DNA of 64,000 nt from Chitinophaga pinensis (GTDB taxonomy: Bacteria; Bacteroidota; Bacteroidia; UKL13-3). Location: positions 8,884 through 72,883 of the forward strand of contig CAMBSD010000017.1 of assembly GCA_945870425.1 (NCBI GenBank). Reading direction: 5' to 3'. Made by a program: the position numbers and the translations under genes. The notes under the pieces are model-generated. The model was not told where the DNA came from. It did not search any database and worked only from the letters and a program-made list of their open reading frames with translations. Of the stretch, positions 3,916 to 37,867 are shown in pieces. Position 1 is the first letter of the stretch, and each line of letters begins with the position of its first letter.

Positions 3916-5023
3916 TTGTTAAACCTGGACCAAAAGCGGCAGTGAATATAGTATTTCCGCTCGTTTTCTTTTCATTATTCCCAATCAATTCTTTCAACAC
4001 AAATAATATGGTGGGTGAAGACATGTTACCATAATTCTTTAAAACATTATAAGCAGAGGCCAATTCATTATTTTCCAAATCAAACACTTTCACAAAATCA
4101 TCCAGAATTTTTTTACCCCCAGGATGAATGGCCCAAAAGTTTATCTTATCTTTTTGAATGTTTAAATCACTCAACATTTTTGAAATATTCCCATTGATCA
4201 AATTGGAAATATAAGCCGATAAACTCATCAAAAAACCATTTTCAGAAAGTTGCCAAGCCATATCGTTTTGACCTTCGTGAATGATTAACGAATTAAATGA
4301 AGTAATTGCCAAGTCATTATATTCAGGCAAATTTTGAGGTTTGGAACTCACAATGGCTGCTGCGCATCCATCGCTGAAAAGCGAATTAGAAAGCAAATAA
4401 TCATCTGTAAAACTGTTTTGAATATGAATGGTACATAACTCTGTACAAACAATTAAAACCTTAGCGTTTGGGAGGCTATTGCAAATAGAATTGGCTTGAT
4501 TCAGTGCAATTATAGCAGCATTGCAACCCATAAAATTAATACTACTTCGTTGGGTTTTCGGATTTAAATTTAGTGCTTGAATCAACTCAATATCCAAGCC
4601 GGGAGCAAAAAGTCCGGTGCAAGTAACAGTAATGATATGTGTGATGCTACTTTTAATGGATTCAAAATTTGCTATCTTTCGAATAGCAGAAAGAGAAAGT
4701 TGCAAGGCATTTGTTTTATAAATCTCCATGCGCTTGGTTAATGAAACAGGCGGAGATAAATCCCAATTCTTTTCAAAAAAAGTAAAATCAGATGGCTGTT
4801 TGCCAAAATCAGCTAAAACAGAATAACGTGTTTGAATGCCTGATTTAGCAGCTACCATGTTCATTTTGCGTTTTATGGTAACATCCTCTGCAGTATTTTG
4901 AAAAAAAGCAGCCAATTCGTTTTGATGATATTGGTAAGCAGGAACTGCAATTTCAATGGCTGTTAAATAACTCAAAATAAATGCTTGGTTAAGAATAAAA
5001 TAATAAAACAAATGTTCATGCAA
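3887..5023 (-). CDS. Type III polyketide synthase (chalcone/stilbene synthase family; alkylresorcinol-synthase-like)
   Basis: Active-site Cys context FMGCNAAIIAL. C-terminal signature FWAIHPGGKKILD and GPGLTIETMQL (compare CHS WIAHPGGPAILD / GPGLTVE). 378 aa. Confidence 0.85.
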   Translation of the reverse strand: MHEHLFYYFILNQAFILSYLTAIEIAVPAYQYHQNELAAFFQNTAEDVTIKRKMNMVAAKSGIQTRYSVLADFGKQPSDFTFFEKNWDLSPPVSLTKRMEIYKTNALQLSLSAIRKIANFESIKSSITHIITVTCTGLFAPGLDIELIQALNLNPKTQRSSINFMGCNAAIIALNQANSICNSLPNAKVLIVCTELCTIHIQNSFTDDYLLSNSLFSDGCAAAIVSSKPQNLPEYNDLAITSFNSLIIHEGQNDMAWQLSENGFLMSLSAYISNLINGNISKMLSDLNIQKDKINFWAIHPGGKKILDDFVKVFDLENNELASAYNVLKNYGNMSSPTILFVLKELIGNNEKKTSGNTIFTAAFGPGLTIETMQLAYV

Positions 5024-5880
5024 AAGGCAGCTATTAAATTCATACGCATGGTATTTTTAAAATTAGCCGCTTTTTCATTTTTAATGGTTCTTACAAACCA
5101 CCATGCAAAGTACCCAACAATTGGTAAGAATAAAAGTTGTATCAAAAAAAAATTATTTGTATTACCTATTTGTTCAAAATATAAATAATAAAACACATTA
5201 CAGATTCCAAACATGAGTGCAGTAAAAACAAAGGTTCCTCTGTATCCTAATTGATAGCTTAATGTTTTTACACCATCCCCTAAATCTGCTTCATGCTGAT
5301 AAATTTGTGTTAATGGATAAGCACCTGCTATTTGAAAACTACAAGCTAAAAGCAATGAAATATTAGCACTTGAAAACGCGAACGAATCATTTGTAATTCC
5401 TATAACGCTCATGATATAGGTAAAGCCTCCTTGAAAAATAACCACTGTTAAAAATCCAATGATGGGATATTTTTTTAATCTAACTTGTTTGGAACTATAA
5501 GCCCTTGAAGCCAAAATATAAACAAGTATGCACAATGAAAAAAGTCTATTTACTAAGGAAAAAGCCAATATTATAGCCAATACATCTAGAACTAAAGTAA
5601 GGTAAAACAAATGAATAGTGGGTGCAGGAGGCTTTTCTATTCCACCAATACTGCCTTCATCTCTGTCAATATAACTATTATAGCCATTGCTTGCAGGGTA
5701 AACCAATAGATGAATAATGATAAAACTAAATAGCGAAGTGTAAATATTAACTGTAGACTGACTCAATGCCAAAATAAATAAAGGCATTAACAGCAGTGAA
5801 AATGGAATACGAAGTAACTGAAGCGTATTTCTAAAAACAGTATTTTTCATTTTGAAATGTTTGTATACAAACTTAAGCAC
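4972..5880 (-). CDS. UbiA-family aromatic prenyltransferase (integral membrane)
   Basis: 302 aa with about 8 hydrophobic helices. Asp-rich motif NSYIDRDEG near TM2. Overlaps the PKS start by about 50 nt. Confidence 0.6.
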   Translation of the reverse strand: MLKFVYKHFKMKNTVFRNTLQLLRIPFSLLLMPLFILALSQSTVNIYTSLFSFIIIHLLVYPASNGYNSYIDRDEGSIGGIEKPPAPTIHLFYLTLVLDVLAIILAFSLVNRLFSLCILVYILASRAYSSKQVRLKKYPIIGFLTVVIFQGGFTYIMSVIGITNDSFAFSSANISLLLACSFQIAGAYPLTQIYQHEADLGDGVKTLSYQLGYRGTFVFTALMFGICNVFYYLYFEQIGNTNNFFLIQLLFLPIVGYFAWWFVRTIKNEKAANFKNTMRMNLIAAFCMNICFIILFLTKHLF

Positions 5881-6212
5881 TTATATCACAATATGGCATT
5901 CATTCTTTGCTATCGCTTAATAACAATAATCCGCACTCGCTAGCGTCCCGCTGGTGAGTGTATTGATATGCCTCTGGCTGATTTTACAATATTACAAAGT
6001 TAAAAACTTTGCTTATCTATCCTCGCAATTGACACTGCGCTTAACACTTGTGAGAGCTTAGTCAATAAACAATTTTTCATAACAAATAAACTTAAATTTA
6101 GTATGAAGTTCTCAACCAAAACAACTCAGTTTTGGCCATCCATCACATTTTCAAACCCAATCGCTGTAACTTTTTTATATTGCTTATCGTATTAGTCTGA
6201 AATCTGCTCATT

Positions 6213-9200
6213 ATGATAAAAAAAATACTCCTCCTTTCTGTTCTATCCTTATTATTGCTAAGTATTGCCACAGCGCAAGAAAATGGCACTCCTAAAGCCG
6301 AAAAGATTCTGCATCAAACCATCATACATGGCGATACACTGCGAGATAATTATTTTTGGCTAAGGGATAAAAACAGCCCAGAGGTTATCAACTACCTATA
6401 TGCCAACAATGCTTACGCAGATAACAAAATGAAGGCGAGCAGCACCCTTCAAAAGGTATTGTTTGACGAATACAGAAGTCGGGTGAAAGAAACCTTTGAC
6501 AGCAAACCACAGAAAAATGAAGGCTATTACTACTATACCCGAAATGTAGCAGATAAAGATTATCCTGCCTTATACCGCAAAAAAGACAGTTTAAGTGCCA
6601 AAGAACAGGTGGTGCTTGACTTGAACGAACTATCAAAAGAATATTTCTATTTCTCCTTACAGTTTTTAAACTATAGCCCCGACCAATCCATCATAGCCTA
6701 TGGTGTTGACACCAAAGGAAGTTTGGTATCCACCATGTATTTTAAAATATTGGATATTGATTCTACCCTGAAGAATGAAAAAATTGATAGCGTATTAAGT
6801 GTAAGTTGGGCTAACGACAATAAAACCATTTATTATACAAAAGCCGAAGCCAAAACCAAACGTAGCTATAGGCTTTACAAACACACGCTTGGCAGCAACC
6901 CATTGGAAGATGAGTTGCTATATGAAGAGCCTGATAAAACATACGAAATAGGACTTAAACGCTCTTCATCAAAAAAATTCATTATCATGGAAGCAAGCAA
7001 AAGCCAAAGCAGCGAAGCTTGGTATTGGAGCGCAGATGATGTGCGTGCAAAACCCCTTTTGTTTAAGAAAAGAGAAGCCGCTTTGCTATACGATATCAAT
7101 CACTATGAAGGAGATGAGTTTTATATACAAACCAATTACAATGCCCTTAACCAACAATTGATGAAAGCCCCAATTAATGCCAAGTCTTGCAAAGAATGGC
7201 AAGTGGTAATTCCACACCGAAGTGGGGTTTTGTTTTCTGGTTATAGTTTATTGAAGAACTACCTTATTTGGAGCGAGCAACAAAATGTAGAACAAAGAAT
7301 TTTGATTAAACAAAGAAAAACCAATCAAATTGACACTCTAAAATCTAAAATAACATTAGGTAGCATGTCTTTCAGTATTGAAGATTATGATTACGAAAAA
7401 ACCAATGAAATAAGGTACAGCGCAGAAACCATGGTTACACCATCTGAAGAGTATAACTATGATTTAAACACAAAAAAGCAAACTTTTTATAATATGGATA
7501 GTATCAATGGGAAGTATAACCCAAGCTTGTATGCTAGCGAAAGGGTTTGGGCCAAAGCCAAAGATGGTGTGATGATACCCATTACCTTGGCTTATAAAAA
7601 AGGAATGCTTAAAAATGGCAACAATCCATTACTTCTTAGTGGCTATGGTAGCTATGGAGTTAGCTCTATGCCCGATTTCAACCAACTCAATATTAGCTTA
7701 CTTGACAGGGGTTTTATAGTGGCCACTGCGCACATCAGAGGTGGTAGAGAAATGGGTCAGGAATGGTATGACGATGGACGCATGTTGTATAAGAAAAATA
7801 CCTTCACCGATTTTATTACTTGTGCTGAACATTTGATAGCAGAAAAATATACTAGCACAGCTAAACTAGCAGTAGAAGGTGGTTCTGCTGGAGGTTTGTT
7901 GATGGGGGCTGTTACCAATATGCGAACTGATTTATTCAAATGTGTGATAGCCAGTGTGCCCTTTGTGGATGTAATCAATACCATGTTAGATGAGAGTATT
8001 CCTTTGACTACAGGTGAGTTTGAAGAATGGGGAAATCCGAAAAATAAGAAATACTATGACTACATGAAATCCTATTCACCTTATGATAACGTGGAACCTA
8101 AGACATATCCTCACATGCTTATAACTGCAGGCTACAACGATGCCCAAGTGGGCTATTGGGAGCCTGCCAAATGGGTAGCTAAGTTAAGGGAATTGAAAAC
8201 CGATACTAATATGCTTTTATTCAAAACCGTGATGGAAGGCGGACATGGCGGCTCTTCTGGTAGGTACAATAAACTTATAGAACAAGCTTACCGCACAGCT
8301 TTTGTTATGCAATGTTTGGGAGTGAAAGAAAACTACATCAGCCTAAAAGGTAAAGTGGTAGATGAATATAATGAACCTGTTATTTATGCCAATGTGTATT
8401 TAGAGGAAAGTAAAATAGGTACAACAAGCAATCAAAATGGAGAGTTTGAATTAAAAGTAAAAGAGTTTAACAATGCTACTTTGGTGGTTCAATCATTGAC
8501 CTATGAAAAACAAAAAATCAAACTTGGACTAAGAACAAGAATACAAAACTTGGTCATTAAAATGAAATCTGAAAACATTCAGATGAAAACGGTAACGGTT
8601 GTTGCCAATGCAGTTGACCCAGCTTTGGGCATCATCAAGCAAGCCATCAAAAAGCGTAAAGAAAACTACGATAGAGTGAAATCATTCTCATCGGATGTGT
8701 ATATGAAATCGAATGTAAAACTATTGGAAGTACCCAAAAACATGCCTTTCTTTTTGAAGCTAGTTGCCAACGGTGAAGTGATTGATTCAAACGATTTAGG
8801 GCTTGTATATTTATCAGAATCTTCTGCAAAATATTACTTTGAAAAACCTGACAATAACAAAGAGGAAATGATGGCAAGCAAAGTAGCTGGACAGAAGCAA
8901 GGCTTTAGTTGGAACAGGGTAAAAGATGTATTCTTCAATTTGTATGAACCTACCATAGACCTAAGCTATTACAGCGAAAGGCCATTTGTATCCCCTATTG
9001 CACCTTTGGCATCTCTTAGTTATAAATATAAATTCAAAGGCAGTTTTTATATAGATAACAAGGAGGTAAACAAAATAGAAATCATTCCCCTTCGCAAGGG
9101 TGACCCATTGTTTCAAGGTTATATTTACATTACATCAAACGATTACCAAATATATGGTGCGGATTTACGAGCCACAAAGGATGCACAAATACAATTTGTA

Positions 9201-23282: not shown

Positions 23283-26200
23283 TTAAGGTTTTATTGTTAA
23301 AACTCCTAATGAGCTATTACTATCCAATATTGGATAATCATTAAAATCAACTGATGCATCTCCATTCAAATCGGTTACAAAATATCCTAAGTCTCCAATG
23401 TTACTTGAAATATCTAATGCTGGATAATCATTAAAATCAACTGAACCATCTTGGTTTATATCTCCAGTATAAATCATAAAAATACCTGATCCGTTATCGA
23501 CCAAATTATTACCAAATGCTTTTGATGCACTAGTAGTAAAATTATATGAAACATTATTTGAACTAAAAGTAATTGGATTTGCACTCCACGTTTCAATTGA
23601 ATTGCGGTGTTTAACAACTACATAATAAGAGTTACCAATAATTGAACTAGGGAACTGAAAATTACCATTTCCTTCAATATTGATTACTGATTTACATGTA
23701 TAAATAGAGTTAAAAGGTGTTATTGACGAATGCAATTCTACAACTATGGTATCAGCAATATTTGATAATCCAGATACAGTTGCTGCTTTGGGAGAAGCAA
23801 TCATATTACCATTTCCAATGTTTAATCCTTGTAAAAATGCCGTTAAATTTAATGTTGTTCCTGAAGTTAAAAATGAGTTATAGGTATCTGGATTATACAT
23901 TGATAAAATTTGTCCACCTTCTACTTGCTCGCCACCAACGCCATAATGTGCTTGGTCTACCATTAAAAACATACCTGCTCCTAAGATTGATTGCATGTCT
24001 ATGATACCAGAAGCTTCTTCATCTTGTGTTAAGTAGTTTGCCGCGCCATTGATAAATCTGGTTGAATCATGGGTAGCGATTAATTTTAATTCATCCGTGG
24101 CAGTAGTGTACTGCCAAATTTTTCCTAAATGAACATTGTTTCCTACATCCTCTTGCAATAAGACATGACCATAATTATCAATAGTCATATTGTCCATCAT
24201 CTTTGGACCTTCAGTTCCATCTAAGACTGCGGTGATAGTTCCACCTGATTCTGGAGTATTGATATCCGAAAGGCGCAATCTCCATAAACGACTTGGTGCA
24301 GTGAATGAATTAGTAGTTACAAAATAGAAATCGTTCGGATTACTTGGATCCCAATGACCATCTTCTGGACGTAAGAAATTAGTTACTCCCAAAGCATTAC
24401 TTTTTGTATTTAAAGCTGCTCCTGAAGAATCTCTTACAATACCTAAATCAACCATAGTAAAGGCCGTATTGGCACCAGGAATTGAAGCACTAACTTCTGT
24501 TGTTAAACCTGTTACTGCAACTCCATATAAACGACCATTGCTTAAACCAGCTTTCTCAATTTCTGTTCCTGTATTGGTTTTGGTTCCAATGTAGAAATAA
24601 ACCTGACCTGGAGTTGCATCATCTGTACCCACAACGATTGTTTTGTTTTGAGCAACTGGTGAGGCAATTGAATTTTCCCATGAGAATTTACCTAAGTAAG
24701 GCAATTCATAAGTAGTTCCTGCATTTGCTCCTGTTACAATATGACCAAAAGCACGTCCTTCAGCGCCTGCTTCTTCACCATTCATAAAGATTCTTTCTTG
24801 TGTTCCTAATCCGCTTGTTGCATTATAGAATGCACTTACTGGTGGTAAATCAGAAGAGCAGAAACGGTTGAATGCTTTTTTGCTTGCAGTATCTGCAGGG
24901 TTATATAAAGTATAACCTGTTCCATTCCATAAATTAACTTTTTGAATCAAATCTGAACCACTAACTACGCTTAAATCAGATTTGTTGATTACCCATTTAG
25001 AAACAAATGCACCCTTAGCACCATGTGCTCTGTTTACTCCTAAGGTATTACCAAACTCATGACTTACTAAAAACGTAAAAGTACCGTTACCATTGTCGTA
25101 AGCACCTGTTCCATCTGGTGTTCCAGCCATCATGTAATTTCCTACTTTATCGCCTGCTGTTAATATCGCAGTAGTTGTTACTCCAGAAGCAACTGGCAAT
25201 AAATAAGGTGATTGTGAACTATTAGCACCAGCATTTGGAACAATAACAGCATCAAGTCTATTGCTTAATGATTGAATTCTTATATCACCTTTAATAGAAG
25301 TATCTCTTAAATTATATGGAGTACTTGTGTAGAAGTTACCCATGTATTCCGCGAAAGCATCTTGCTCTTTACCAGTTGTAGAAAAAGTTGCAATACCTGT
25401 AGATTTAATTGCGGTATCTAAATTAACTCTATTTGTAGCATTTGCAGGGAAAGGATAATTATCACCACCAGTAAATAAGAAGTCTAAAGTTACAAATTTG
25501 ATGATTCTACTAGTATCGCCAACCAAAGCACCATTTTTAACAATAGTATCTAATCTGTTTCCTAAAGAATCAACTAAAACCATTGAACGAATTCTGTTTC
25601 CAGCACTTAGGTTCACATTGTAACTGAACATAACACCACCAACTTGTGGGAATTGACCTGGAGTTGCACCAGCAGTAGTAGCAGAAATTCCATGTTCTAA
25701 AATTCTTTTTAATCCTGCAGCATTTGTTCTAGCAACAACTAATCCATTGTTGAATCTTAAAGAGTTTTCAATGTCTAATTGAGAGATATCACCTTTAGCT
25801 TTGCCAGCAGAAGGATTTGCAAGTGTATTTTCTAAGATTGTAGTGTTTCCAACTGCATTGATATTTCCAATTGCAGAGCGGATACCACCGCCATTTTTGA
25901 TAGAAACTTTTACTCCAGAATCTGCCAATTTAGCATACCATAAGTTAGCATCAGCAGTTAAGTTACCGAAATTTGTTTCTTCAGTTCTAACAAAATTTCT
26001 TCTTCCTTCTAAGAATACATTTGTTTTTCCAAATTTGTTACCGTCTTTATTATTTATAACTGTAGCAATTTGTGAAGTTAAAGTTCTAACATTTGCACCT
26101 TTACTTCCATTAGTAAAACCAGCAGTATAAGTACCATATAAAGTAGTAACCATAGCTGTATCAGCTGCATAAGCACCGTTGATAGTAGAATCTAAAAAGT

Positions 26201-28850
26201 TTGGTAATAATCTTCCTAAAGAATCGAAATCGCAAACAAAACGACCCACATATTTCCATTCAGCAGTTGTATTTAAAATAGCTAATGGCTCGTTGTCGTT
26301 GTTTACAGTTAAAATTGGATACGTATCAGCCACTGGAATGCCTGCTCTTAATCTGTCATTGCCATCAGCACATAATGAATGTGAACCACCAGCAATAATA
26401 ATATCAACACCTTTTAATAAGGGAGCCAAAGCTTTTTCGTTAGCCAATTGTTGTAAATGACTCATAACAATAATTTTGTTGATTCCCATTGTTCTTAAAG
26501 AATCAATAACTGGTTGTAATACTGCAGCTAAAGCAGGCATATCATTTACGTTAGCACCAATTACTGTAGTAGCACCTGGAGATGAAATAGAAGCTAATAC
26601 TTGCGTAGTAGCACCAACAATACCTACTCTTTCGCCATTCATTGCAATAATAGCTGAAGGTGCAATACCTTTCTTTTGGCTGTTTGCAGTAATGTTTACA
26701 GGAGTTTTAAAACTATCAACAAGCAAACGTTGGTTAGTAGTTAAGTAACTTAAATTAATATCGTTTGCAAAGTTTAAGTTAGCACTTAAATATGGAAATT
26801 GAGCACCAATCCAACGTTTATCAGCACCATTACTTCTAATATCAACACCTATGATACTATTTACCTCAGGAGTTCCTAAATCAAACTCGTGGTTACCAAA
26901 AGCCGAACCCTGGAAACCCATAATATTCATCATAGCAATATCTGTTCTACCAATGGCTGGTCTGATTGATTGTGTTCCTGCATAATAACTGCTAGCCGTA
27001 TTACGTAAAGGAGTTTGCATACTAGCATCTTCACCAGCGCTTAAAAACGGACTAGGAATATAACAATCACCAGAAGCTAACTTTACAGTATTAGGGTAAG
27101 TACCTTCTAAAGTATCTAATACAGCAGCAAAGTTTGGTGCATCTATGGGAGCATCAATTCCGCTTTCCATATCCGAAGCGTGTAATACTTGCATTTGGAA
27201 TGCACTACGAGAGTTTACTTGAAATACAGCAACTGTTCCACTTACTTCATTAGATAATAAAATCAAATCTTTTCCATTTGGACTTTCATTACGTGGTATG
27301 AATACAATTCCCTCTGGACCTAAGTCACCAACTGTAGCCAAATTAGCTTGACTTGGACTAACAGCAAAATTTCTTGTATTTATGTATTGCACAAAATATG
27401 GGCTATTTGGATTTGTGATATTGTAAATCATAATACCACCAATTCTTTCTAATGCTACAAAAGCATAAGTACTGTCTAATATTTTACCGATAGTTACTGA
27501 CTCTGGTTCAGGACCTTTGTTATCACTCCTATTATCTAATGCATTAGAAGAATGATTTGCATTAAAGTTTGAAGGATAAGCAGCTAAAGTTTTTCTTTCA
27601 AACTCATCTTTACTATCCCAAACTAATGAACCAGTTGAACCATTCCAAATAGAAAACGAACGACCACCAAATGCAAAAATGGTATCGAATAAACCGTCAG
27701 CATTATTATCACCAAATAATTTAGTAACAGTTAATCTTCCAATTCCTGTATTTGCTTTTAAGGCTGTTACCCTAGCTGCACCTCCAAAATTAGTTGGATC
27801 TAAATTATATGAACCAGAACCAACTGAAGTTTCTTCATTGTTAGCTGCACCCCAATCTGCTCTTGCATCACCTTCATTAGCGGTAACAAAATAAGTTTGG
27901 TTTCCAACTTTATAAGAAGAAATACCATCAGGTAAATACATTCCTAAAACTGGGAAAGTATCAATTTTGGCTAAAGCCGCATTTGAAGCACCATCTCTAT
28001 CAGAACCATCAAAAGCATTTTCCAATAAAGCATGATTTTTATAACCTAAAGGCAATAAAGATGTAATAGTAGCTGTATTTATATCTACAACAGCAACACA
28101 ATTGTTTTCTTGACAAGTTACCCATGCAGTATTGTTATCATCAGAGATACTTATGTATTCTGGTTCCAAATCTTCTGCAACAGTTGAGTTCCTTAAAAAT
28201 GATCCACCTGATTGAATTTTTCCGAAAATACGAATTTTTGAGTCAATTACAGTAGGAGCATTAAATGCAGTAAAACCAGCAGTTTGCACATTAGATTGAG
28301 TTAATCCAGCAAAACCACCTGAAACATCAATAATTGAAACCGAACCTTCTGGATCGATGGTGTAACCATTGTTTGGCTCACCTTCGTTAGCTACTAAAAC
28401 TTTGTTTCCATTTGGTGTGAAAACCACATTGTCGGCATTAGCACCCACTTTTACTTTACTAATAAAGTTTCCATTGATGTCTAAAAATACGATGCTACTT
28501 GCGTTTGTTTTACCATTCGAATCTAAAATGGCAGCAGCAATAATTCCTTTTTTGTTACAAGCTACCGAAGTAATGTCACTTCCATAAGGAGCCATTGAAA
28601 TAGAACTAATTTGAGCTGGGCTAGCAGGATTAGCCATGTTTACAATCCTCAAAGAATTGTCTGGACCGTTTGTAACAAACATTCTTTTTGAACTTGGGTC
28701 GTAAGCCGAAATTTCAGCTACTCCTCCATCTTGGTTGTAAGTTCCTATGGAGTACCTTCCAAGGAGTTGCGCATTGATTTGCGCTTTAATTTGTGAACCT
28801 ACAGATAATAAAAGCAGGGCACATAAAAATTTGTAAATTGTTTTTTTCAT
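23283..28850 (-). CDS. Giant secreted multi-domain phosphoesterase: beta-propeller N-domain, 5'-nucleotidase/metallophosphoesterase, phytase-like domain, novel dockerin-like C-terminal module
   Basis: 1855 aa. Signal peptide MKKTIYKFLCALLLLSVGSQIKAQ. Metallophosphatase motifs LHASDMES and GNHEFDLG. Phytase-like region. C-terminal ...[15 protein letters not shown]...[14 protein letters not shown]... with no canonical T9SS CTD. Confidence 0.8.
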   Translation of the reverse strand: MKKTIYKFLCALLLLSVGSQIKAQINAQLLGRYSIGTYNQDGGVAEISAYDPSSKRMFVTNGPDNSLRIVNMANPASPAQISSISMAPYGSDITSVACNKKGIIAAAILDSNGKTNASSIVFLDINGNFISKVKVGANADNVVFTPNGNKVLVANEGEPNNGYTIDPEGSVSIIDVSGGFAGLTQSNVQTAGFTAFNAPTVIDSKIRIFGKIQSGGSFLRNSTVAEDLEPEYISISDDNNTAWVTCQENNCVAVVDINTATITSLLPLGYKNHALLENAFDGSDRDGASNAALAKIDTFPVLGMYLPDGISSYKVGNQTYFVTANEGDARADWGAANNEETSVGSGSYNLDPTNFGGAARVTALKANTGIGRLTVTKLFGDNNADGLFDTIFAFGGRSFSIWNGSTGSLVWDSKDEFERKTLAAYPSNFNANHSSNALDNRSDNKGPEPESVTIGKILDSTYAFVALERIGGIMIYNITNPNSPYFVQYINTRNFAVSPSQANLATVGDLGPEGIVFIPRNESPNGKDLILLSNEVSGTVAVFQVNSRSAFQMQVLHASDMESGIDAPIDAPNFAAVLDTLEGTYPNTVKLASGDCYIPSPFLSAGEDASMQTPLRNTASSYYAGTQSIRPAIGRTDIAMMNIMGFQGSAFGNHEFDLGTPEVNSIIGVDIRSNGADKRWIGAQFPYLSANLNFANDINLSYLTTNQRLLVDSFKTPVNITANSQKKGIAPSAIIAMNGERVGIVGATTQVLASISSPGATTVIGANVNDMPALAAVLQPVIDSLRTMGINKIIVMSHLQQLANEKALAPLLKGVDIIIAGGSHSLCADGNDRLRAGIPVADTYPILTVNNDNEPLAILNTTAEWKYVGRFVCDFDSLGRLLPNFLDSTINGAYAADTAMVTTLYGTYTAGFTNGSKGANVRTLTSQIATVINNKDGNKFGKTNVFLEGRRNFVRTEETNFGNLTADANLWYAKLADSGVKVSIKNGGGIRSAIGNINAVGNTTILENTLANPSAGKAKGDISQLDIENSLRFNNGLVVARTNAAGLKRILEHGISATTAGATPGQFPQVGGVMFSYNVNLSAGNRIRSMVLVDSLGNRLDTIVKNGALVGDTSRIIKFVTLDFLFTGGDNYPFPANATNRVNLDTAIKSTGIATFSTTGKEQDAFAEYMGNFYTSTPYNLRDTSIKGDIRIQSLSNRLDAVIVPNAGANSSQSPYLLPVASGVTTTAILTAGDKVGNYMMAGTPDGTGAYDNGNGTFTFLVSHEFGNTLGVNRAHGAKGAFVSKWVINKSDLSVVSGSDLIQKVNLWNGTGYTLYNPADTASKKAFNRFCSSDLPPVSAFYNATSGLGTQERIFMNGEEAGAEGRAFGHIVTGANAGTTYELPYLGKFSWENSIASPVAQNKTIVVGTDDATPGQVYFYIGTKTNTGTEIEKAGLSNGRLYGVAVTGLTTEVSASIPGANTAFTMVDLGIVRDSSGAALNTKSNALGVTNFLRPEDGHWDPSNPNDFYFVTTNSFTAPSRLWRLRLSDINTPESGGTITAVLDGTEGPKMMDNMTIDNYGHVLLQEDVGNNVHLGKIWQYTTATDELKLIATHDSTRFINGAANYLTQDEEASGIIDMQSILGAGMFLMVDQAHYGVGGEQVEGGQILSMYNPDTYNSFLTSGTTLNLTAFLQGLNIGNGNMIASPKAATVSGLSNIADTIVVELHSSITPFNSIYTCKSVINIEGNGNFQFPSSIIGNSYYVVVKHRNSIETWSANPITFSSNNVSYNFTTSASKAFGNNLVDNGSGIFMIYTGDINQDGSVDFNDYPALDISSNIGDLGYFVTDLNGDASVDFNDYPILDSNSSLGVLTIKP

Positions 28851-29119
28851 TATTCTTAAGAAATTAGTGCGACAAAGAAACCTAAATCGTATTAACGAAT
28901 CGCACTCTTGAGATTAACAAATAATCACGAAATATTAAATTGGCGTTTAAGAAAATGTAAAGAATGTTAATTTAAGATTAATTAAACAAATCAAGAATGC
29001 CTCTCATAAAGTTTTTTGTGAATAAAATTAGAGAAACATAAAGTTAATAAAATAAGGCTTTAGCTTGTAACTATGCGTCCGCAAAATAAGAATGTTAACT
29101 TAATATCATATAGAATTTC

Positions 29120-29162
29120 AACAAAAACAAAGCCCGTTTAACTTGCGTTAAACGGGCTTTTG
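29120..29162 (-). terminator. Rho-independent terminator downstream of the small GG-tail gene
   Basis: aaagcccgtttaac-ttgcg-ttaaacgggcttt hairpin. T-run on the minus strand (gtttttgt). Confidence 0.65.
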
Positions 29163-29191
29163 TCTTATGTTTTTGATTGATAATCTTTCGA

Positions 29192-29389
29192 TTATTTTTT
29201 GTTTCTCTCTTTTAGCTTTTTGATACCGTATCCGATACCTGCTACTGCTAAAATCGACAAGCCACCATCTACGGGTACATCGATTGGATCATCGCCAAAT
29301 CCTCCTCCGCCTCCACCTGGTTGTGCTTGTGCTGCTACAGCTAACATCAACATGATGGCTGCACTTAGTATGTTTCTTGCTGTTTTCAT
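29192..29389 (-). CDS. Tiny secreted protein: signal peptide, Gly6, acidic motif, then GG-hydrophobic helix-basic tail (sortase-substrate-like C-terminal signal)
   Basis: MKTARNILSAAIMLMLAVAAQAQ | PGGGGGGFGDDPIDVPVDGG LSILAVAGIGYGI KKLKERNKK. Own terminator downstream. Confidence 0.5.
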   Translation of the reverse strand: MKTARNILSAAIMLMLAVAAQAQPGGGGGGFGDDPIDVPVDGGLSILAVAGIGYGIKKLKERNKK

Positions 29390-29442
29390 ATTCGTTTTGT
29401 TTTTGTTATTTTTTGTTGTTGTTACTATTTTTTGTTTTTAGC

Positions 29443-31887
29443 TTATTTCACAAATTTAACTGTGTTTACAAAGCCTGTTTCCATGTTGCTTACTCTTACG
29501 AAGTAAACACCACTGCTCAATTTCTGTATGTCTAAGCTCTTTTTGTTACCCATCATGTTGTTGTTCATCACTTCTACACCTGATACGCTGAAGATTGATA
29601 CTTCTGATTGTTTGAAGTTTGCATTGGTAATCTCTACGTTCAATACATCTACTGCTGGGTTTGGATATACAGTCATATTTGCTGTTCTACCTGCCAATAC
29701 GCTTTCGATTGAGCTGGTTTTGTTTACAAATATTAACTCTAATCTACCATCCATAGTTGATGCTGGTTTTGAATCTACTGTGAATGCATATTTGTTGTTT
29801 TGACGTAAGTCTGTGATGGTATTGCTGTAATTATCTTTCAAATAGATATTGATGTTGGCATCAAATCCGTCTACTTGATTGAAGTTTAGGTCATACGTTC
29901 CTTCTTCTGCTACTGATGCGCCTAATGGAATTACTTTTGCATCCATGCTCTTTGTATTCATATAGTTTACAATCGCATATTTGTCTGTGCCAAAGTATGA
30001 GCTAATGTTTACACTTGGGTTCATCATTGGTTTTGCAACATCATCTGAATAGTTAAATTCATCTGATTTGTTATCCATAAAACGTACTACTGCTTCATCG
30101 CTTTCTGTTGCATCTTTTACTAAAGTCATTCTTAATGAATTTCTTTCTGCTGCTTTAAACATGTTCGATGGCGTATTGCTTACTTTTACTGATTCGCCTG
30201 CGCTTAATGCTGGTGATGAACCTGTAGCTTGTACAAAGAATGCTTGTCCGCTTGCTAAGTAACGAGTTACACTGTTTGTTGGTGTTGTTCCATCAAATGA
30301 TCCATATGAATTTGTGATTGGGTTCCAAACCCAAATAGTTCCTCCTACATTGGTTTTTGTCCATCCTGTAGAAGCGCTCCAATCAATTGGAGATGGGTAA
30401 GGATTTCCTACCAAGTTCCAACCATTACCTAAACTTGCATTGTAAGTTACTGGCATGCTCACTGGGCTTGATGGATTGCTTCCGCTTACCCATAAAGTAG
30501 TTGCGTTATTGGTTGTATTTACTGTAGTTAATGATATGCTTCTATCGCCTCTCACAAACACACGGTAACCTCTACCATTTGCTAAAGCTGAATTTCCATC
30601 AATAGCTTCCCATTTAGCGTTGATGTTGCTTCCACCTACTGCTGATGATTCGTTATATCCATAGGCTGATGATGAATTATTTGATGATGCATCTACAGTT
30701 CCTGTTGCACCTGTGATGTGAGTTCCGATACCTGAAGTACTTCCTGCATTGTCTCTCCATTGTAGAGTTGTTCCTCCTGATACTGGTGAGGCTAAGAATC
30801 TCCATCTACGTCCGTTTGCTGGAATATAACGCTCTGCGGTGATGGTTCCTGTTACTGCTGAACCTGAACTTAATTGATCGATTCTTGCTGTTCCTGCTGC
30901 TGTTGATTTTAATGTCAAACCATTTGTTGCTAAAATAGCTGTTCCTGTTTGGCTTACTGCGCCTGTTACTACTGCTGGCATGCTTAATGTTTTTGTTCCA
31001 CTTGATGCAAATCCTAAGTTTGTAACTGACAATGATGACAATGAACCTCCTACTGTTTGGCTACCTGAGCCTGTTAAGTTTAATGTGGCTGAGCTACTTG
31101 TGAATGTTCCATCTACTGTCATATCTCCACCTACGCTCAATGTATTTGAACCTAAATCGTGGCTTGTGCCTGACAATGATTTGTATGCTCTGCAAGACAA
31201 GTTACCTGATTGAGTTAATGTTCCTGCTGCAAAAATATTTACATCTTGACTTGAAGTTGGAGCTGCTGTACTTACTGATCCTGCTGTTCTTGAACCTGTA
31301 TTCCATGCACTGCCTGTCCAATAGGTTGGTGTATAACAAAATGCTTGGTTGGCTAGTACTGCTGCTGTTCCTGTATTTGATACTACTGAAACGTTGGCTC
31401 CTCCATTGTCATAGTTAAATCCTGCTGCTGGAGCTGCGTTGAATTTCCATGCAAAGTTTGGTGTTGATGTGGTTGAGTAATCTACTGTGTTTGTTAAAGT
31501 GATGGTGAAACATTTTACGCGTGATCCTGCTGGAATACTTGTTCCTGTTCCACTTCCTACTGAAGTGATAATCTTTCTGAAATAAGCTGGGGCGGTTGCT
31601 GAAAAACTCGCTGTACTTGCTCGTTGGCCTGCTACCAAACCGCTTGATGGTGTTGCTACCGTTAAGGTTCCGCCACTCGTCCATGCTGTGTTTACTAAGA
31701 AGGCTATCGTGCCTCCTCGTAGCTCAAATGAACTTGCTCCTGTGTTGTACAAGTATACATCTAAACTGTATACCTTTGAGCTTACTAATTGCTCATTCTC
31801 TAACCTCCACTCAAAGGTTGGTAGCTGCGCATATAATGTCGCGCCTAGCGTCATTAATAATGCAATTGTGGTAATGATTCTTTTCAT
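29443..31887 (-). CDS. Ser/Thr/Gly-rich secreted surface protein with a T9SS type-A C-terminal sorting domain
   Basis: 814 aa. Signal peptide. C-terminus VYPNPAVDVLNVEI...LSSGVYFVRV...VKFVK matches the Por secretion CTD pattern. Confidence 0.8.
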   Translation of the reverse strand: MKRIITTIALLMTLGATLYAQLPTFEWRLENEQLVSSKVYSLDVYLYNTGASSFELRGGTIAFLVNTAWTSGGTLTVATPSSGLVAGQRASTASFSATAPAYFRKIITSVGSGTGTSIPAGSRVKCFTITLTNTVDYSTTSTPNFAWKFNAAPAAGFNYDNGGANVSVVSNTGTAAVLANQAFCYTPTYWTGSAWNTGSRTAGSVSTAAPTSSQDVNIFAAGTLTQSGNLSCRAYKSLSGTSHDLGSNTLSVGGDMTVDGTFTSSSATLNLTGSGSQTVGGSLSSLSVTNLGFASSGTKTLSMPAVVTGAVSQTGTAILATNGLTLKSTAAGTARIDQLSSGSAVTGTITAERYIPANGRRWRFLASPVSGGTTLQWRDNAGSTSGIGTHITGATGTVDASSNNSSSAYGYNESSAVGGSNINAKWEAIDGNSALANGRGYRVFVRGDRSISLTTVNTTNNATTLWVSGSNPSSPVSMPVTYNASLGNGWNLVGNPYPSPIDWSASTGWTKTNVGGTIWVWNPITNSYGSFDGTTPTNSVTRYLASGQAFFVQATGSSPALSAGESVKVSNTPSNMFKAAERNSLRMTLVKDATESDEAVVRFMDNKSDEFNYSDDVAKPMMNPSVNISSYFGTDKYAIVNYMNTKSMDAKVIPLGASVAEEGTYDLNFNQVDGFDANINIYLKDNYSNTITDLRQNNKYAFTVDSKPASTMDGRLELIFVNKTSSIESVLAGRTANMTVYPNPAVDVLNVEITNANFKQSEVSIFSVSGVEVMNNNMMGNKKSLDIQKLSSGVYFVRVSNMETGFVNTVKFVK

Positions 31888-31969
31888 GTTTTTTAACTTT
31901 TAATTAATTGAATTAACTTAAAAATCAATCACATTACTAGTAATACCAATAATGTGATTGATTATTTAT

Positions 31970-34900
31970 TTATGGTGTCATTGTCAATGTTCCAAGATTA
32001 CTGTTGATATCTAACAATGGATAATCACTAAAATCAACAGAGGCATCGCCATTTAAGTCGGTTACATAATATCCTAAATCTCCATTGTTACTGCTAATAT
32101 CTAAATCAGGATAATCATTAAAGTCAACCGAACCATCTTGGTTGATATCTCCAGTATACATAATGAATACACCATTTCCATCATCAGCCATATTGCTTCC
32201 AAAAGCTTTACTTGCTGCATTTGAGAAATCATAATTATTTGTTTGACCTAATACAATTGGATTTGCTGACCAAGTGGTTATTGAGTTTCTATGTTTGATT
32301 ACTACAAAATAAGCATTACCCATCAAGGTTCCTGAGAAACTGCTTGAAACCATACCTGAAGTAGAAACAGATGATTTGTTAGTAGCAATTAAAGTATGGC
32401 TGCTGGTGGTATCATGCAATTCAATTGTTATGGTATCTGCTATAGTGCTTGGGCTAATTCCATCTGCACTAAATGGGGCAGCTATCATTGCGCCATTGCC
32501 CAGGTATAAGCCTTGTAAATATAATTTCAAGTTTAATTGTGCCGAAGCTGCAATTACATTAAGAGTTAAAGTAGCCGCACTATCACAACCTGCTGCATTG
32601 GTTAAATGTGCAGTTTGTGTTCCTGCTGCATTAAAGGTTAAACCGTTCCAATTGTAAGGCAACTGGTTTGAGTATATAGTTACGTTATTACTTGATGTGG
32701 TTGGTGTGCAAACTGAAACTACAGTTATATTAACAATGGCGTTGTTAGTACCACCACAATTATTTGCAGTAACGGTATAGTTTGTTGCAACCGAAGCAAC
32801 AGTTGGCGTGCCACTAATAACACCTGTAGTAGTGTTTAAACTTAAACCTGCTGGTAAGCTAGGGGTTACGCTATAACTACTTACCGCTCCACCGCTCATA
32901 TCAATTTTATAAACTTCAGAGTTATCGTCATCAGCCACATACACATTACCTGCTGCATCTAATGCAACACCCCTAGGTGCACTAAAACCAGAACCGATAC
33001 TGCTAATATTTCCGTTTGGAGCAACCACTTTGATAACACCATTTGAATTTGCACCATCAGCCACATAAACATTATCATTAGCATCTACAGCAATAGAACT
33101 CATATCATCAAAGCCTGTGGCTAAAACAGATATAGCGCCATTGGTAGTCATCTTTTTTAATACTCCTCCGAAACCAGTACCAGAATAATCTCCTACATAA
33201 ATATTACCTGTTGCATCTACAGCTATGGCTTCTGGATAAACAAATCCTGAACCTATAACTGTTATAATTCCACTGGTATTTATTTTTTTAACTTTATTAT
33301 TAAAGTTATCTGTTACATAAATATTACCTGCAGCATCAACTGCAACAGCCCTTGGGTTATTAAAACCAGTATAGGTATTTAACAAATTACCATTTGGCGA
33401 AATTTTTAATACTTTATTGTAGTATTGATTTGTAACATATACATTACCTGCTTTATCGGTAGCAAGGCCTCTTGCTTTTTCTATACCTGTGCTATAAAAA
33501 GTGGTTTCATTACCATTTTTATCTATTTTTTTAATTACGTCGTTGTCATAGTCAGAAACAAACACATTGCCTGCAGTGTCTACGGCAACACCATAAGGAT
33601 CGTAACCTGATGTAATTGTAGAAACATTGCTTGGGCTTAGTGGCGTTATGCTGCTATTTTGTGTGAATACATTAGGTGTATTATAGCTAAAAGCATTAGG
33701 TGCTTGTGTAACGGTTAAATTTAATGTTACCACACTATCGCAACCTGCTGCATTCGTTAATAATATTGTATCTGTGTTATTACTTGCAGTATATACTTTA
33801 TTGCCTTTGGCTACCCAAGTGTAGCTGCCACAAGCAGTATCCGTGAAAATTGACACCGTTGGTGTGCAAACAACACAACTAGATAATTGCATAGGGCTGG
33901 TTTTATTGCCAGCAGTACCAATACCTAATGCTGCTCCCGCGAAATTAGCCCCCCAAACCCATAAACTGCCATCGGTTTTAATGGCTAGGCTATGATCATA
34001 ACCTGCACTAATGCTTGCCCAATTGGTGGCAGTGCCTATTTGCACGGGGGTGTGTCTACCGGTAGTAGTTCCATCGCCCAATTGCCCTTGATAATTTACA
34101 CCCCAAGCCCATAAACTGCCATCAGTTTTTTTTGCCGTGGTATAATACCCACCTGCACTAGTGCTAGCCCAATTTGTTGCAGTGGTTATTTGCACAGGGC
34201 TGTGTCTATCGGTAGTAGTTCCATCGCCCAATTGTCCATCAGTATTTAATCCCCAAGCCCATAATGTGCCATCGTTTTTAACGGCAACATTGTGCATTCC
34301 ACCTGCATCAACGCTTTTCCAATTGGTGGCAGTGCCAATTTGCACAGGGCTGTTTCTTTGGGTAGTAGTTCCATCGCCCAATTGCCCAAATCCATTATAG
34401 CCCCAAGCCCATAATGTGCCATCGGTTTTTGTGGCTACGGTACTACTATATCCTACACTAATGCTTTTCCAATCGGTCGCAGTGCCTATTTGCACAGGGC
34501 TGTTTCTTTGGGTAGTGGTTCCATCACCCAATTGTCCGTTTAAATTTTTACCCCAAGCCCATAATGTGCCATCGGTTTTAAGGGCCATGGTATGTTCAGA
34601 AATACCACAAATAATTGTTTTCCAATTGGTGGCAGTGCCTATTTGCACTGGGCTGTTTCTTAGGGTAGTGGTTCCATCACCCAATTGTCCGTTAAAATTT
34701 TTACCCCAAGCCCATAATGTGCCATCATTTTTTATGGCCATGCTATAATCATTCCCACCCACAACGGTTTTCCAATTCCAATTGGTGGCTGTGCCTATTT
34801 TCACAGGGCTGTTTCTGGTGGTTTGAGTGCCATCTCCCAATTGTCCCCAATTATTATAACCCCAAGCCCATAAACTGCTATCAGTTTTTATGACAATGCT

Positions 34901-37867
34901 TGCATATGTACCTGCACTAACGGCTTGAATACAGCTTTCAGAAAAGGTTGTTCTAATAGTAATACCACCCGATATAGCACTAGTTACATTGCTGCAAGCA
35001 TTGCTTACTTTACAATAGTAATAAAGCGTTCCACCTTCAGTAGTAGCTGGTGTATAGCTTGCACTAGTGGCACCAAGAATAGGACCACCATTAATGTTTG
35101 CAGTAGTGTTGCTATACCACTGATAGCTTAAAGTGCCTGCACCTGTTGCAGTTACTGATAAAGTAGTAGCAGTTGCATTAAGTCTTAGTGAACGAGTTGT
35201 AGTATCAGGCTGCCCTGTAATAGCTACCATACCCGGTGGCGGTGTAATTGTTACCGAACCTAAACTGCTTAAAATTGAACAATGAGTTCCATTACTAATA
35301 CGTGCACGCACATTATAAGTAGCTGGATACACATTGGTAAAATGAGGATCTTCGGTATAATATTGACCATTGATAGTGTATTGGATACTATTGTCTTTAA
35401 TGACTACATTTTTTACAGAATGGTAATTGTTTGCCCCTCCTCCGCATCTTGCAGCAAGAGCATATTGCCAACTAGATTTGTTATCGGTAGTATAAGCTGC
35501 TGGCAATTGGTAATTGCTACAAATAGTAGTATCACCGTGCACAATGGTTAGTTTTCCATCGTATGTTACAGATATAGCAACTGATTTATAACTATTTGTA
35601 TTTAGGGTTGCACTATAAGACTGAAGCTCAATTTTATTATAATAAATTTTAATGGTATTGAAATATTCGATAAAGCCAATAGCCAAACCACTGTTTACCA
35701 TTCCAGATTCTGCCGCACCTGCAGTACCGGCAGTATTTAAATTTCCATAGTTAAAACTAATTCCATCTCCTCCGTTTCCTCCTCCTACAAATACATCATA
35801 GTTGGCAGCAAAAGCATTGGGTTTAGCTACCGTTGAATTAAAAGCAATATAACCAGCCCTGTTGCTAGTATTTGGTGTAAGCACTAAATCGCCAAATCCC
35901 CCCCATATAGGGTTACAACAAGTACCCAAATTGCCAATAGTAGCAGCACCTAGTTGTTGATTAGTCAAACTAATATTTACTAAATCGTAGGGTGATGATA
36001 GACCGTGAGATACATTGCTAATAGTAACAGTACCACCTGTAGTTGTACAAGTAGTTGGGCTAGTAGAAGCTAGAGTTCCCGTAATATCTGGTGTATAAGT
36101 AATTGTTGCAGTTCCTATTTGAAAAGTATTTGAGCAATGAACCCCATTGCTTTTACGAGCAAACACGGTATACTGCCCAGGGGCTACACCAGTTAATGTT
36201 GTAGCTGAAGTAAAATTACCATTACCTAAAAAATATTGAATATCGTTGTCTTTAATGACTACATTTTTTACAGAATGGTAATTGTTTGCCCCTGCTCCGC
36301 ATCTTGCAGCAAGAGCATATTGCCAATTAGATTTGTTGTCAGCAACATAAGCTGCTGGTAATTGGTAGTTGCTACAAATAGTAATACCACCATGCACAAT
36401 GGTTATTTTTCCATCTTGTGTTACCGTTATAGCAACTGATTTATAACTACCTGTATTTAGGGTTGCACTATAAGACTGAAGCTCAATTTTATTATAATAA
36501 ATTTTAATGGTATTGCTATATTCGCTAAAGCCAATAGCCAAACCACTGTTTACCATTCCAGATTCAGCGGCACCTGCAGTACCTACAGTATTTAATACCC
36601 CATAGTTAAAGCTTAAACCATCTCCTCCGTTTCCTCCTCCTACAAATACATCATAGTTGGCAGAAAAAGCATTGGGTTGGGCTTCATTTGTACCAAAAGC
36701 AATAAAGCCAGCCCTATTGCTAGTATTTGGTGTAAGCACTATATCACCATTACCCCAATAAGGGTTACAACAAGTACCCAAATTACCAATATAAGCACCA
36801 CCAAGTTGATTGTTAGTTAGACTAAGATTTACTAAATCGTATGGAACAAAATTATGCGTTACATTGCTAATAGCAATAGTACCAGTACTTGTGCAAGTAG
36901 TAGGATTATTAGGGGTTATAGTTGCAGCAACAGATAAACTAGTAATAGTTTGTGTACCTATACTAGCTGTTGAATTATAACCATTAGCATTATAAGCAGC
37001 ATTACCAATTCTGGCATAAGAGCCATAAGTACCAGGGTTTAAACCAGAAAAATTATTATTTGTAGTAAAATTGGTACCATCTAAACTATATTCCCAAGGT
37101 GTGCGATCTTTTATGACTACATCATTTATGGAGTGATAATTATTTAATGCACCGCATCGTGCAGCAAAGCCATATTGCCAGTTGGTTTTATTATCGGTAA
37201 TATAAGCAGCCGGTAACTGATAGTTGGTGCAATAAACGTTGCCACCATGGGAAAGCGTAAGTTGTCCGCTTCCGGTAATTTCTATGCTAACTGATTTCCA
37301 GCCACTATTATTTAGAGTGCCATTTACATTATAAGATGTAAGTTGAACTTTGTTATAATAAATTATTATTTTGTTACTATAATCATTAAAACCAATAGCC
37401 AAGCCACTATCTATCATGCCAAATTCTCCATAGTTTCCACTACTAGTGTTTACTTTACCATAGTTAAAGCTAGTGCCATCTGCACCAGAGCCACCACCTA
37501 TATATATGTTAAAGTTGGCAATAAAATTAACGGGTTTCAATGCTGTTTCAGCAAATGTGATAAACCCTCTTTTGTCATTTGAATTTGGTGTTAGCTGCAA
37601 CCAGTGAGACGCACCAGGAGTGAATGCTGGCGTATAGTTCACCCCTCCCACTACTGCACCCACAGGCAAAGAAGATAAATCGGAATTTACTAAATTGTAA
37701 GGGGCTGCACTTGTTGCAGTATTAATTGTTATGCTACCGGTCCCCGAACAAATAGCAGAAGTTGTAGTGGCACTTCCCGTTATAGTCGGTGGTGTTTGAG
37801 CCTTGGCAAATGTGCCAAAGAGGAACAGCATGACTACTATCCAAATGGTTTTAAAGTTTGATTTCAT
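31970..37867 (-). CDS. Giant secreted surface protein: 3-4 L-type-lectin-like domains, RCC1 beta-propeller repeats, NHL repeats, dockerin-like C-terminal module
   Basis: 1965 aa. Signal peptide. Repeated about 290-aa units (…[25 protein letters not shown]…YQLPAAY…[14 protein letters not shown]). RCC1 repeats ([27 protein letters not shown]) about 7 times. NHL repeats (AVDxAGNVYVxD). C-terminus homologous to the 1855-aa protein. Confidence 0.8.
33880..34900. repeat. Intragenic tandem repeats of about 153-159 bp encoding RCC1 blades, with several copies near-identical
   Basis: The antisense ORF track shows [21 protein letters not shown] four times. The sense strand encodes repeated [21 protein letters not shown]. 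Confidence 0.8.
35250..37330. repeat. Intragenic tandem duplication of about 860-bp units (lectin-like domains). Two copies about 93-95% identical at DNA level, a third more diverged.
   Basis: Near-identical stretches begin near 35388 and 36245 (e.g. ...tgtctttaatgactacattttttacagaatggtaattgtttgcccct...). A diverged copy begins near 37110. Confidence 0.8.

Follow-up and report, generated by a model that had tools for sequence, protein, structure and literature searches.

We analysed a stretch of 64,000 nucleotides (nt) from Chitinophaga pinensis (Bacteroidota; contig CAMBSD010000017.1 of assembly GCA_945870425.1, positions 8,884 to 72,883), referred to here as the window, which has a G+C content of 35% over its whole 64 kb. 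Its centre of interest is a mini-gene at 29192..29389 on the (-) strand, which encodes a 65-amino-acid (65-aa) member of the PID-CTERM family. Our principal finding concerns the company that such genes keep: across the genomes compared, a PID-CTERM mini-gene is found, with near-obligate regularity, directly behind and on the same strand as a gene for a RemA/RemZ-like cargo protein of the T9SS (type IX secretion system). In the window this partner is an 814-aa protein encoded at 29443..31887 (-). The linkage between mini-gene and type-A cargo was absent from the literature that we searched; the curators' notes for the family models NF046080 and PF28310 may record it.

Adjacency of mini-gene and adhesin gene

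A scan of one genome per species yielded 79 loci, and the neighbourhood comparisons cover 89 loci. The hosts are mostly metagenome-assembled genomes (MAGs) of Chitinophagaceae, together with other Chitinophagales, a Sphingobacteriaceae MAG and unclassified Bacteroidota MAGs, and genomes with several copies are common (at least eight in UBA1930 and at least nine in nzgw143). Where 1500 nt or more of upstream DNA was available, 57 of 63 mini-genes lay directly behind a same-strand homologue of the main module of the 814-aa protein. These upstream partners range from 380 to 2800 aa in length, their C-terminal approximately 500 aa being homologous to residues of about 250 to 800 of the 814-aa protein, and the gap between the adhesin gene and the mini-gene is 1 to 131 nt in most loci. 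Viewed from the other side, 57 of 68 such upstream proteins are followed by a mini-gene that fits the strict family pattern, and five more by slightly divergent mini-genes; the exceptions to the pairing are loci L009/L010, L021, L032, L033, L052 and L081. A Por_Secre_tail domain was found in the last 110 aa of 42 of the 43 distinct upstream proteins, and the arrangement is kept even with a partner that is only 31% identical (E = 2e-54). When all neighbours in the 89 loci were clustered, the cargo family was the sole recurrent neighbour, with 119 members in 71 loci, the next in rank being generic response regulators. The first-pass annotation had supposed that minimal substrates of this kind mark sorting-system loci; what they mark in these 89 loci is T9SS cargo, and never a sorting enzyme.

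The window also supplies an internal negative control. An 861-aa protein with a T9SS type-A-like C-terminal domain is encoded at 56656..59241 (+); by BLASTP it resembles the 814-aa protein in that C-terminal domain only (E = 1e-4), and no mini-gene follows its gene.

Two further observations were made on the set of loci. Contigs L023, L024, L032, L042, L045, L050, L055, L056, L058, L062, L063 and L073, as well as L017, are titled as Bosea thiooxidans, Rhizobium sp. Q54, Asaia bogorensis or Methylacidiphilales MAGs; these bins carry Chitinophagaceae-type pairs and are probably mislabelled or contaminated. One lineage (L007 and L008) has, roughly 1 kb upstream of the pair, a gene at 6179..6964 whose product resembles glutaminyl cyclase (PF05096), a proximity that may be coincidence and that would bear on cyclization of the N-terminal glutamine discussed below.

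The 814-aa protein is a T9SS type-A cargo: its C-terminal domain (residues 740-814) matches both PF18962 (Por_Secre_tail, 55.4 bits) and TIGR04183 (47.7 bits), and Pfam finds nothing before that domain. Its RemA/RemZ-like character emerges at the level of the family. Searched by itself, the 814-aa sequence matches no more than a C-terminal domain, and the kinship is recovered with a profile of 34 of its homologues (A2), which matches Flavobacterium johnsoniae RemZ (Protein Data Bank [PDB] chain 8gl8_D, E = 1.5e-22) and RemA (8gl6_D, E = 8e-21) over about 345 positions (467-811), well beyond the C-terminal domain; the N-terminal parts differ. The motifs NL[IV]GNPYPS, GYI..GQ.FF, VPLG and VYLEDK are common to the family and to RemA and RemZ. 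RemA is a gliding adhesin and RemZ is its homologue, and each, as a type-A substrate, binds PorV within the SprA translocon (PMC10994853). The genes Fjoh_0802, Fjoh_0804, Fjoh_0807 and Fjoh_0809, which neighbour remZ and remA, found no mention in the literature searched.

An AlphaFold2 (AF2) model of the 814-aa protein (predicted local distance difference test [pLDDT] 81, predicted template modelling score [pTM] 0.73) is all-beta, with an N-terminal sandwich, a beta-helix-like stretch, more sandwiches and the C-terminal domain. The N-terminal sandwich (residues of about 25-170; 31380..31820, (-)) is an extra element that is present in the closest relatives as well and missing from shorter homologues. 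Other homologues attach the same module to varied N-terminal parts, including DUF3494/ice-binding domains, autotransporter-type beta-strand repeats and FG-GAP. Foldseek searches with the whole model returned the T9SS C-terminal domain of mirolase (8qb1) and CBM3, CBM2 and cohesin-like sandwiches (E = 1e-4 to 5e-3), the latter being matches to the model as a whole, with the matched region not reported.

The peptide and its family

The mini-gene has an ATG start, a stop codon at 29192..29194 and the full translation MKTARNILSAAIMLMLAVAAQAQPGGGGGGFGDDPIDVPVDGGLSILAVAGIGYGIKKLKERNKK. Read by eye, residues 1-22 (29324..29389, (-)) form a predicted Sec signal peptide in the classic n/h/c order: an n-region (MKTARN), an h-region (ILSAAIMLMLAVAA) and a c-region (AQA), followed by Gln. 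Cleavage is predicted at AQA↓Q, and A-Q stands at the same position in approximately 70% of 75 distinct family members. This cleavage fits the Bacteroidetes Q-rule, by which Gln occupies the +1 position and the new N-terminus is cyclized to pyroglutamate (PMC5837995, PMC10653852). The mature peptide (29195..29323, (-)) opens with Gln and a run of Gly, continues through an acidic stretch to VPVDGG, and closes with LSILAVAGIGYGI, which is hydrophobic, and the basic KKLKERNKK tail; its predicted topology is an exported part of approximately 20 aa rich in Gly and Asp, a Gly-rich hydrophobic segment of 13 to 15 aa and a basic cytoplasmic tail. The first-pass annotation had described a signal peptide joined to a C-terminal tail of motif, hydrophobic segment and basic cluster, all of which are plain in the translation; it had also proposed a mature product of about 42 aa beginning at Pro, which by our reading is 43 aa long and starts at Gln.

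The tail belongs to a family that curators have already named. Residues 38-62 (PVDGGLSILAVAGIGYGIKKLKERN; 29204..29278, (-)) match the whole of NCBIfam model NF046080 (profile positions 1-25 of 25) at 43.5 bits, compared with a curated cut-off of 26, with E = 2e-11; the model is titled 'PID-CTERM protein-sorting domain-containing protein', and the elements it covers (PVDGG, LSILAVAGIGYGI and KKLKERNKK) lie at the extreme C-terminus. PF28310 (PID_CTERM) is the precomputed Pfam label on the identical protein and on public homologues, and one NCBI record of a family member bears the PID-CTERM protein-sorting name. Our local Pfam scan gave no match to the mini-protein, the local copy lacking or missing PF28310. 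Tail models were compared in NCBIfam release 20, the library that NCBI uses for annotation, at E <= 10. At that threshold the GlyGly-CTERM, PEP-CTERM and PEF-CTERM models, a scan of which the first-pass annotation had suggested, do not match, and the motif is P-V-D, not P-E-P; by these models the mini-protein is not a member of the three families. The only other rows were PFE-CTERM (E = 0.2; 12.3 bits, compared with a cut-off of 24) and XrtJ-target (E = 0.83), both below cut-off. The notion of a sorting-signal-like tail thus survives in the sense that a curated model calls it a protein-sorting domain, and its GlyGly-CTERM-like character does not survive comparison with the models. The mini-protein is a member of an already catalogued, functionally undescribed family, and the element itself is not new; it is alike to the rest in VP[IV]DGG, the Gly-rich hydrophobic segment, the Lys/Arg cluster, size and layout, and differs by an insertion of three to six Gly, Ser and Thr residues after the N-terminal QPG, which is shared by its clade.

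The family is large and its shape is constant. Searches used a profile of seven mature regions (A1). A word-indexed search gave more than 6000 clusters at E <= 10, the best 120 of which are all 40 to 88 aa long. When 1.84 billion representatives were searched exhaustively with HMMER, 2275 clusters (at 50% identity) passed E <= 1e-3 and 142 passed E <= 1e-10; every one of the best 150 is 40 to 124 aa long and has the match at its C-terminus. A motif search of the 89 loci found 85 tails, all in open reading frames (ORFs) of 40 to 109 aa, several of these ORFs being N-terminally over-called or cut by a contig end. No large protein ending in a PID-CTERM tail appeared among the 85 locus tails, the best 120 or the best 150. 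A tail without a passenger is therefore the norm for the PID-CTERM family and is not peculiar to the locus at 29192..29389. No second PID-like tail was found within the window, and a tblastn search of a plasmid collection with the consensus mature peptide gave no match.

The family consensus reads ...A↓QPGF[GD]DDVxDVP[IV]DGGLSLLVAAGVGYGAKK[LI][RK]... (the arrow marking the cleavage site). In a family profile of 75 distinct members, the D-V-P-x-D-G-G positions are 97% to 100% conserved, as is each of the S, L, A, G, Y and G positions of the hydrophobic stretch; the exported part, from Gln to PxD, has a median length of 14 aa and a net charge of -5. Some members (P0258, P0294, P0360, P0251 and P0279) duplicate the segment PGF[GD]DD..DVP or add an acidic low-complexity stretch of 40 to 60 aa before the motif, indicating that the exported part can expand while the tail stays fixed.

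The ORF at 29192..29389 is a real gene, far beyond chance expectation, as the hidden Markov model (HMM) match, the presence of the identical protein in 301 blocks of a public assembly index and the synonymous character of all changes in the mature region show. Compared with loci L011, L012 and L013, the 43 codons of the mature peptide differ at 17 to 19 of 129 nt and at no amino acid; all five replacements in the mini-protein sit in the signal peptide, and 24 to 26 of the 32 to 34 differences across the mini-gene fall at third codon positions. The mature peptide is under strong purifying selection. Over the same three loci the adjacent 814-aa protein is only 62% to 68% identical to its counterparts, so that the mini-peptide is the better conserved member of the pair.

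The two-gene cassette and its surroundings

In the window, the 814-aa gene, a spacer, the mini-gene and a terminator make up a repeated cassette of 2.78 kb (29116..31894, (-); boundaries as given by BLAST repeats). The cassette is 99.2% to 99.3% identical to copies L002 and L004, which are two of four places on one 3.25-Mb contig, and 98.7% and 91% identical to L005 and L006, respectively, on other contigs. The mini-protein is identical in all of these copies, the DNA changes being confined to third positions. At its end the cassette includes a terminator-like hairpin of the intrinsic type (29129..29160, (-); 14-bp stem, 4-nt loop and T-run), the 101-nt region of which folds with a minimum free energy (MFE) of -31.7 kcal/mol (z = -8.9 relative to shuffled sequences). 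The A-rich spacer between the two genes is 53 nt long (29390..29442, (-)) and 53 to 57 nt in all cassette copies; no terminator was found in it. Because there is no terminator between the genes and a strong one after the pair, and because the repeat spans both genes, the 814-aa gene and the mini-gene appear from their layout to form one two-gene unit with a shared terminator, in which the mini-gene would be promoter-distal and co-transcription is probable. The first-pass annotation had taken the terminator as the mini-gene's own and as a sign of independent expression; it ends the two-gene unit, behind a spacer without a terminator, and the pair is duplicated and conserved together. A TAAATTTG box of the Bacteroidetes type (TAnnTTTG) lies at 29458..29451, 62 nt upstream of the mini-gene ATG, and could be an internal promoter element, its frequency being that expected by chance; a sigma-70-type promoter scan also gave matches at chance level only.

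The repeat begins approximately 7 nt before the ATG of the 814-aa gene, just past a perfect 19-bp hairpin (31923..31963, (-)) that separates the cassette from the stop codon of the preceding gene and is followed by TTTTTAAG. This hairpin is possibly the terminator of that preceding gene, or an attenuator. In the interval from the hairpin to the ATG of the 814-aa gene we saw no promoter box of the Bacteroidetes type.

The four cassette copies on the 3.25-Mb contig each stand behind a different large gene. The window joins an L003-like upstream side (RCC1 giant gene, 93% identical) to an L001-like downstream side (choice-of-anchor I gene, prs, L25 and pth; 89% to 98%), and L005 joins the upstream side of L001 to the downstream side of L004. 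Such mixed flanks arose either because cassette copies recombined in related strains or because the assembly was joined across the repeat. The genes upstream of the copies share a homologous C-terminal domain, and duplication or gene conversion therefore seems a more likely origin of the cassette repeat than a mobile element.

The mini-gene had been placed between two giant genes, which is correct on one side only: the 814-aa gene lies directly upstream, and the giants are one gene further upstream and directly downstream. The former encodes a 1965-aa RCC1/NHL-repeat protein (31970..37867, (-); Pfam), the last approximately 190 aa of which (31973..32542, (-)) are a shared C-terminal domain with two DxNxDGxVDFxDYP repeats. 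The latter encodes a 1855-aa choice-of-anchor I/5'-nucleotidase/PhoX-like protein (23283..28850, (-)) with the same C-terminal domain (23286..23855, (-)); the choice-of-anchor I domain (513 bits), a 5'-nucleotidase C-terminal domain, a PhoX-like region and the dockerin-like end suggest a surface phosphatase or nucleotidase. The approximately 190-aa domain stands at the end of each protein whose gene precedes a cassette copy (RCC1, Ig_7, fn3/GEVED and a 571-aa protein; L001-L006 and L064), and one gene further upstream a Beta_helix_4 protein carries a version of it that is 32% identical. Proteins with this domain have two EF-hand/dockerin-like repeats and no T9SS C-terminal domain. The dockerin label is itself weakly matched (Pfam Dockerin_1, E = 0.39; EF-hand and dockerin PDB chains, E = 0.1 to 1.2, with dockerin itself at 1.2). 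On the structural model, the N-terminal beta-sandwich of the 814-aa protein might serve the dockerin-like tails of the giants as a docking site; against this idea, L011 and L013 keep the N-terminal domain without such an upstream gene.

Possible roles of the peptide

We lean, with moderate confidence, towards a reading in which the mini-peptide, dedicated to its cargo, is the substrate of a membrane enzyme encoded elsewhere, and in which its processing serves the RemA/RemZ-like adhesin encoded upstream. Combining the sequence with established knowledge, the steps would be as follows. The precursor would be exported by Sec and cut by signal peptidase I at AQA↓Q, and the new N-terminal Gln would probably be cyclized, as in other exported proteins of Bacteroidota. 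The 43-aa peptide would stay in the inner membrane by means of its short Gly-rich hydrophobic segment, with approximately 20 acidic and Gly-rich residues toward the periplasm and the KKLKERNKK tail in the cytoplasm. As the likeliest next step, an integral membrane enzyme encoded elsewhere would recognize the nearly invariant DVP[IV]DGG together with a conserved face of the helix and, by analogy with PEP-CTERM and exosortase, would cut at the motif and transfer or release the short acidic peptide. Given that mini-genes and adhesin genes are paired one-to-one, the peptide would probably act in the export, surface attachment or release of its own adhesin, not as a free-standing product.

The PEP-CTERM/exosortase system is the model for this reading, and its tail and that of the mini-protein are alike in consisting of a motif, a hydrophobic segment and a basic cluster. 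For PEP-CTERM, the proposal is that an exosortase in the inner membrane cuts close to the motif and joins the new C-terminus to an unidentified compound (PMC7468200). Also common to the two are a Sec signal peptide (predicted here), numerous substrate genes in each genome and the location elsewhere of any enzyme; many substrate copies with no linked enzyme would be a many-to-one pattern like that of PEP-CTERM. Unlike PEP-CTERM proteins, the mini-protein carries the motif P-I/V-D-G-G, has no passenger and matches no PEP-CTERM model, and whereas we saw no link to exopolysaccharide loci, the mini-genes are linked to T9SS cargo genes.

For the enzyme, XrtF is the obvious candidate by our inference. 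XrtF is an exosortase class reported in Bacteroidota with unknown targets, and in F. johnsoniae deletion of xrtF or of its partner gives the same surface-colonization and biofilm phenotype as deletion of porU or porZ, which are T9SS attachment genes (PMC10936215). The more specific proposal, that PID-CTERM peptides are the missing substrates of XrtF or another unlinked intramembrane enzyme and that their processing is required, cargo by cargo, for anchoring or releasing RemA-like T9SS adhesins, is in our estimate doubtful, and rather unlikely as a whole. No sortase, exosortase or rhomboid gene was found in the window, in agreement with the first-pass annotation on the sortase: the multi-pass ORFs tested are UbiA, VTT/DedA and GT2 proteins, with one that matches Lnt via the L001 locus, and two small ORFs in the window gave no family match. 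Near the other loci we listed 32 multi-pass ORFs, and six of the small ones gave no exosortase match in NCBIfam. The UbiA-family prenyltransferase, with eight predicted membrane segments, is encoded at 4972..5880 (-), in a run of four to five same-strand genes with 2091..5023.

Several points weigh against processing by an unlinked enzyme. There is no obvious passenger to sort, the exported part being only approximately 14 to 20 aa. Conservation extends over the entire mature peptide, the pre-motif segment and specific hydrophobic positions included, a pattern that suits a peptide acting intact no less well. The final place of the adhesin is beyond the outer membrane and that predicted for the peptide is the inner membrane, and the reading does not explain how the two would meet. 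Clustering of the 89 loci gave no sorting enzyme as a recurrent neighbour. The top 80 genomic matches are Chitinophagaceae, Sphingobacteriaceae and unclassified Bacteroidota MAGs, and none is labelled Flavobacteriales, in which XrtF has been studied. Co-transcription is read from the layout only, with the chance-level TAnnTTTG box standing 62 nt before the mini-gene ATG. Finally, the term 'PID-CTERM' was absent from the literature searched, and we found no published function or sorting enzyme for it.

The strongest alternative, which we regard as possible if on the unlikely side, is that the peptide acts in intact form, as a small membrane subunit with a single pass. It would bind either its cognate adhesin, in the periplasm, or a part of the T9SS or of the gliding machinery, and would escort, tether or time the export of the adhesin. 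One-to-one gene pairing and probable co-transcription accord with such a role, as do the conservation of the entire mature peptide (0 of 43 aa changed), the Gly-x-Gly-x-Gly face in its hydrophobic segment, and the lack of both a passenger domain and a linked protease. There is also a precedent among type-B cargo of the T9SS, in which a large adhesin gene is followed directly by a dedicated small partner, one per cargo (F. johnsoniae SprB-SprF and Fjoh_3952-Fjoh_3951), the cognate shuttle being needed in apparently stoichiometric amounts (PMC12618676). The parallel is limited: here the cargo is type-A, and the partner is a predicted single-pass peptide of approximately 43 aa without sequence kinship to the PorP/SprF-like outer-membrane beta-barrels that serve type-B cargo. 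For type-A cargo, RemA being an example, the carrier is the general one, PorV; the hydrophobic stretch spans only 13 to 15 aa; and the layout of the tail copies that of known cleaved sorting signals, as which the curators file it.

It is improbable, in our judgement, that the peptide is itself a membrane anchor or acceptor to which the exported adhesin, once its C-terminal domain is removed, is joined or by which it is held, as a protein-based alternative to the Porphyromonas glycolipid anchor. Type-A cargo of Porphyromonas gingivalis and Tannerella forsythia is joined C-terminally to a linking sugar of a glycolipid anchor (PMC7468200), and the one-to-one pairing, the unusually short hydrophobic segment and the N-terminal Gly run of the window's clade would suit an acceptor of this kind; set against these, the N-terminal Gln is expected to be cyclized, which would block its amine, the Gly run is not conserved across the family, and there is no known route for a helical peptide to the outer membrane.

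The version put forward in the first-pass annotation, a GlyGly-CTERM-like substrate cut at GG by rhombosortase or another rhomboid-type intramembrane protease, strikes us as very improbable. Its appeal lies in the invariant GG at the start of the hydrophobic segment, at the membrane boundary and followed by basic residues, and in the example of Vibrio, in which rhombosortase cuts at GG and attaches a moiety containing glycerophosphoethanolamine (PMC7468200). The GlyGly-CTERM model, however, is without a match at E <= 10, and rhomboid-like genes were neither seen in the window, among the multi-pass ORFs tested, nor recurrent near family members. Rhombosortase systems, moreover, are mainly proteobacterial.

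An ORF present by chance, or a secreted Gly-rich peptide of small size (a bacteriocin, for instance) that has nothing to do with the neighbouring genes, might be suggested by a short, low-complexity ORF in an AT-rich genome rich in small ORFs, but is effectively refuted by the conservation data (mature-region substitutions all synonymous, a significant HMM match, conserved synteny and thousands of homologues of the same architecture), the hydrophobic segment and basic tail arguing further against a freely secreted peptide.

What this analysis contributes is the context, namely that these peptides are almost always encoded straight behind a RemA/RemZ-like T9SS adhesin. A large family, with 2275 clusters at 50% identity and many copies per Chitinophagaceae genome, thereby gains a specific candidate partner. 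Since type-A cargo is thought to need only PorV, a dedicated partner encoded downstream would be an unrecognized layer of the pathway. If XrtF does process the peptide, then an orphan enzyme with a biofilm and colonization phenotype would gain its first substrates; if that processing is also a required step for the adhesin, an exosortase-type pathway would have a physical and functional tie to gliding and type IX secretion, and the resemblance of F. johnsoniae xrtF mutants to porU and porZ mutants would be explained.

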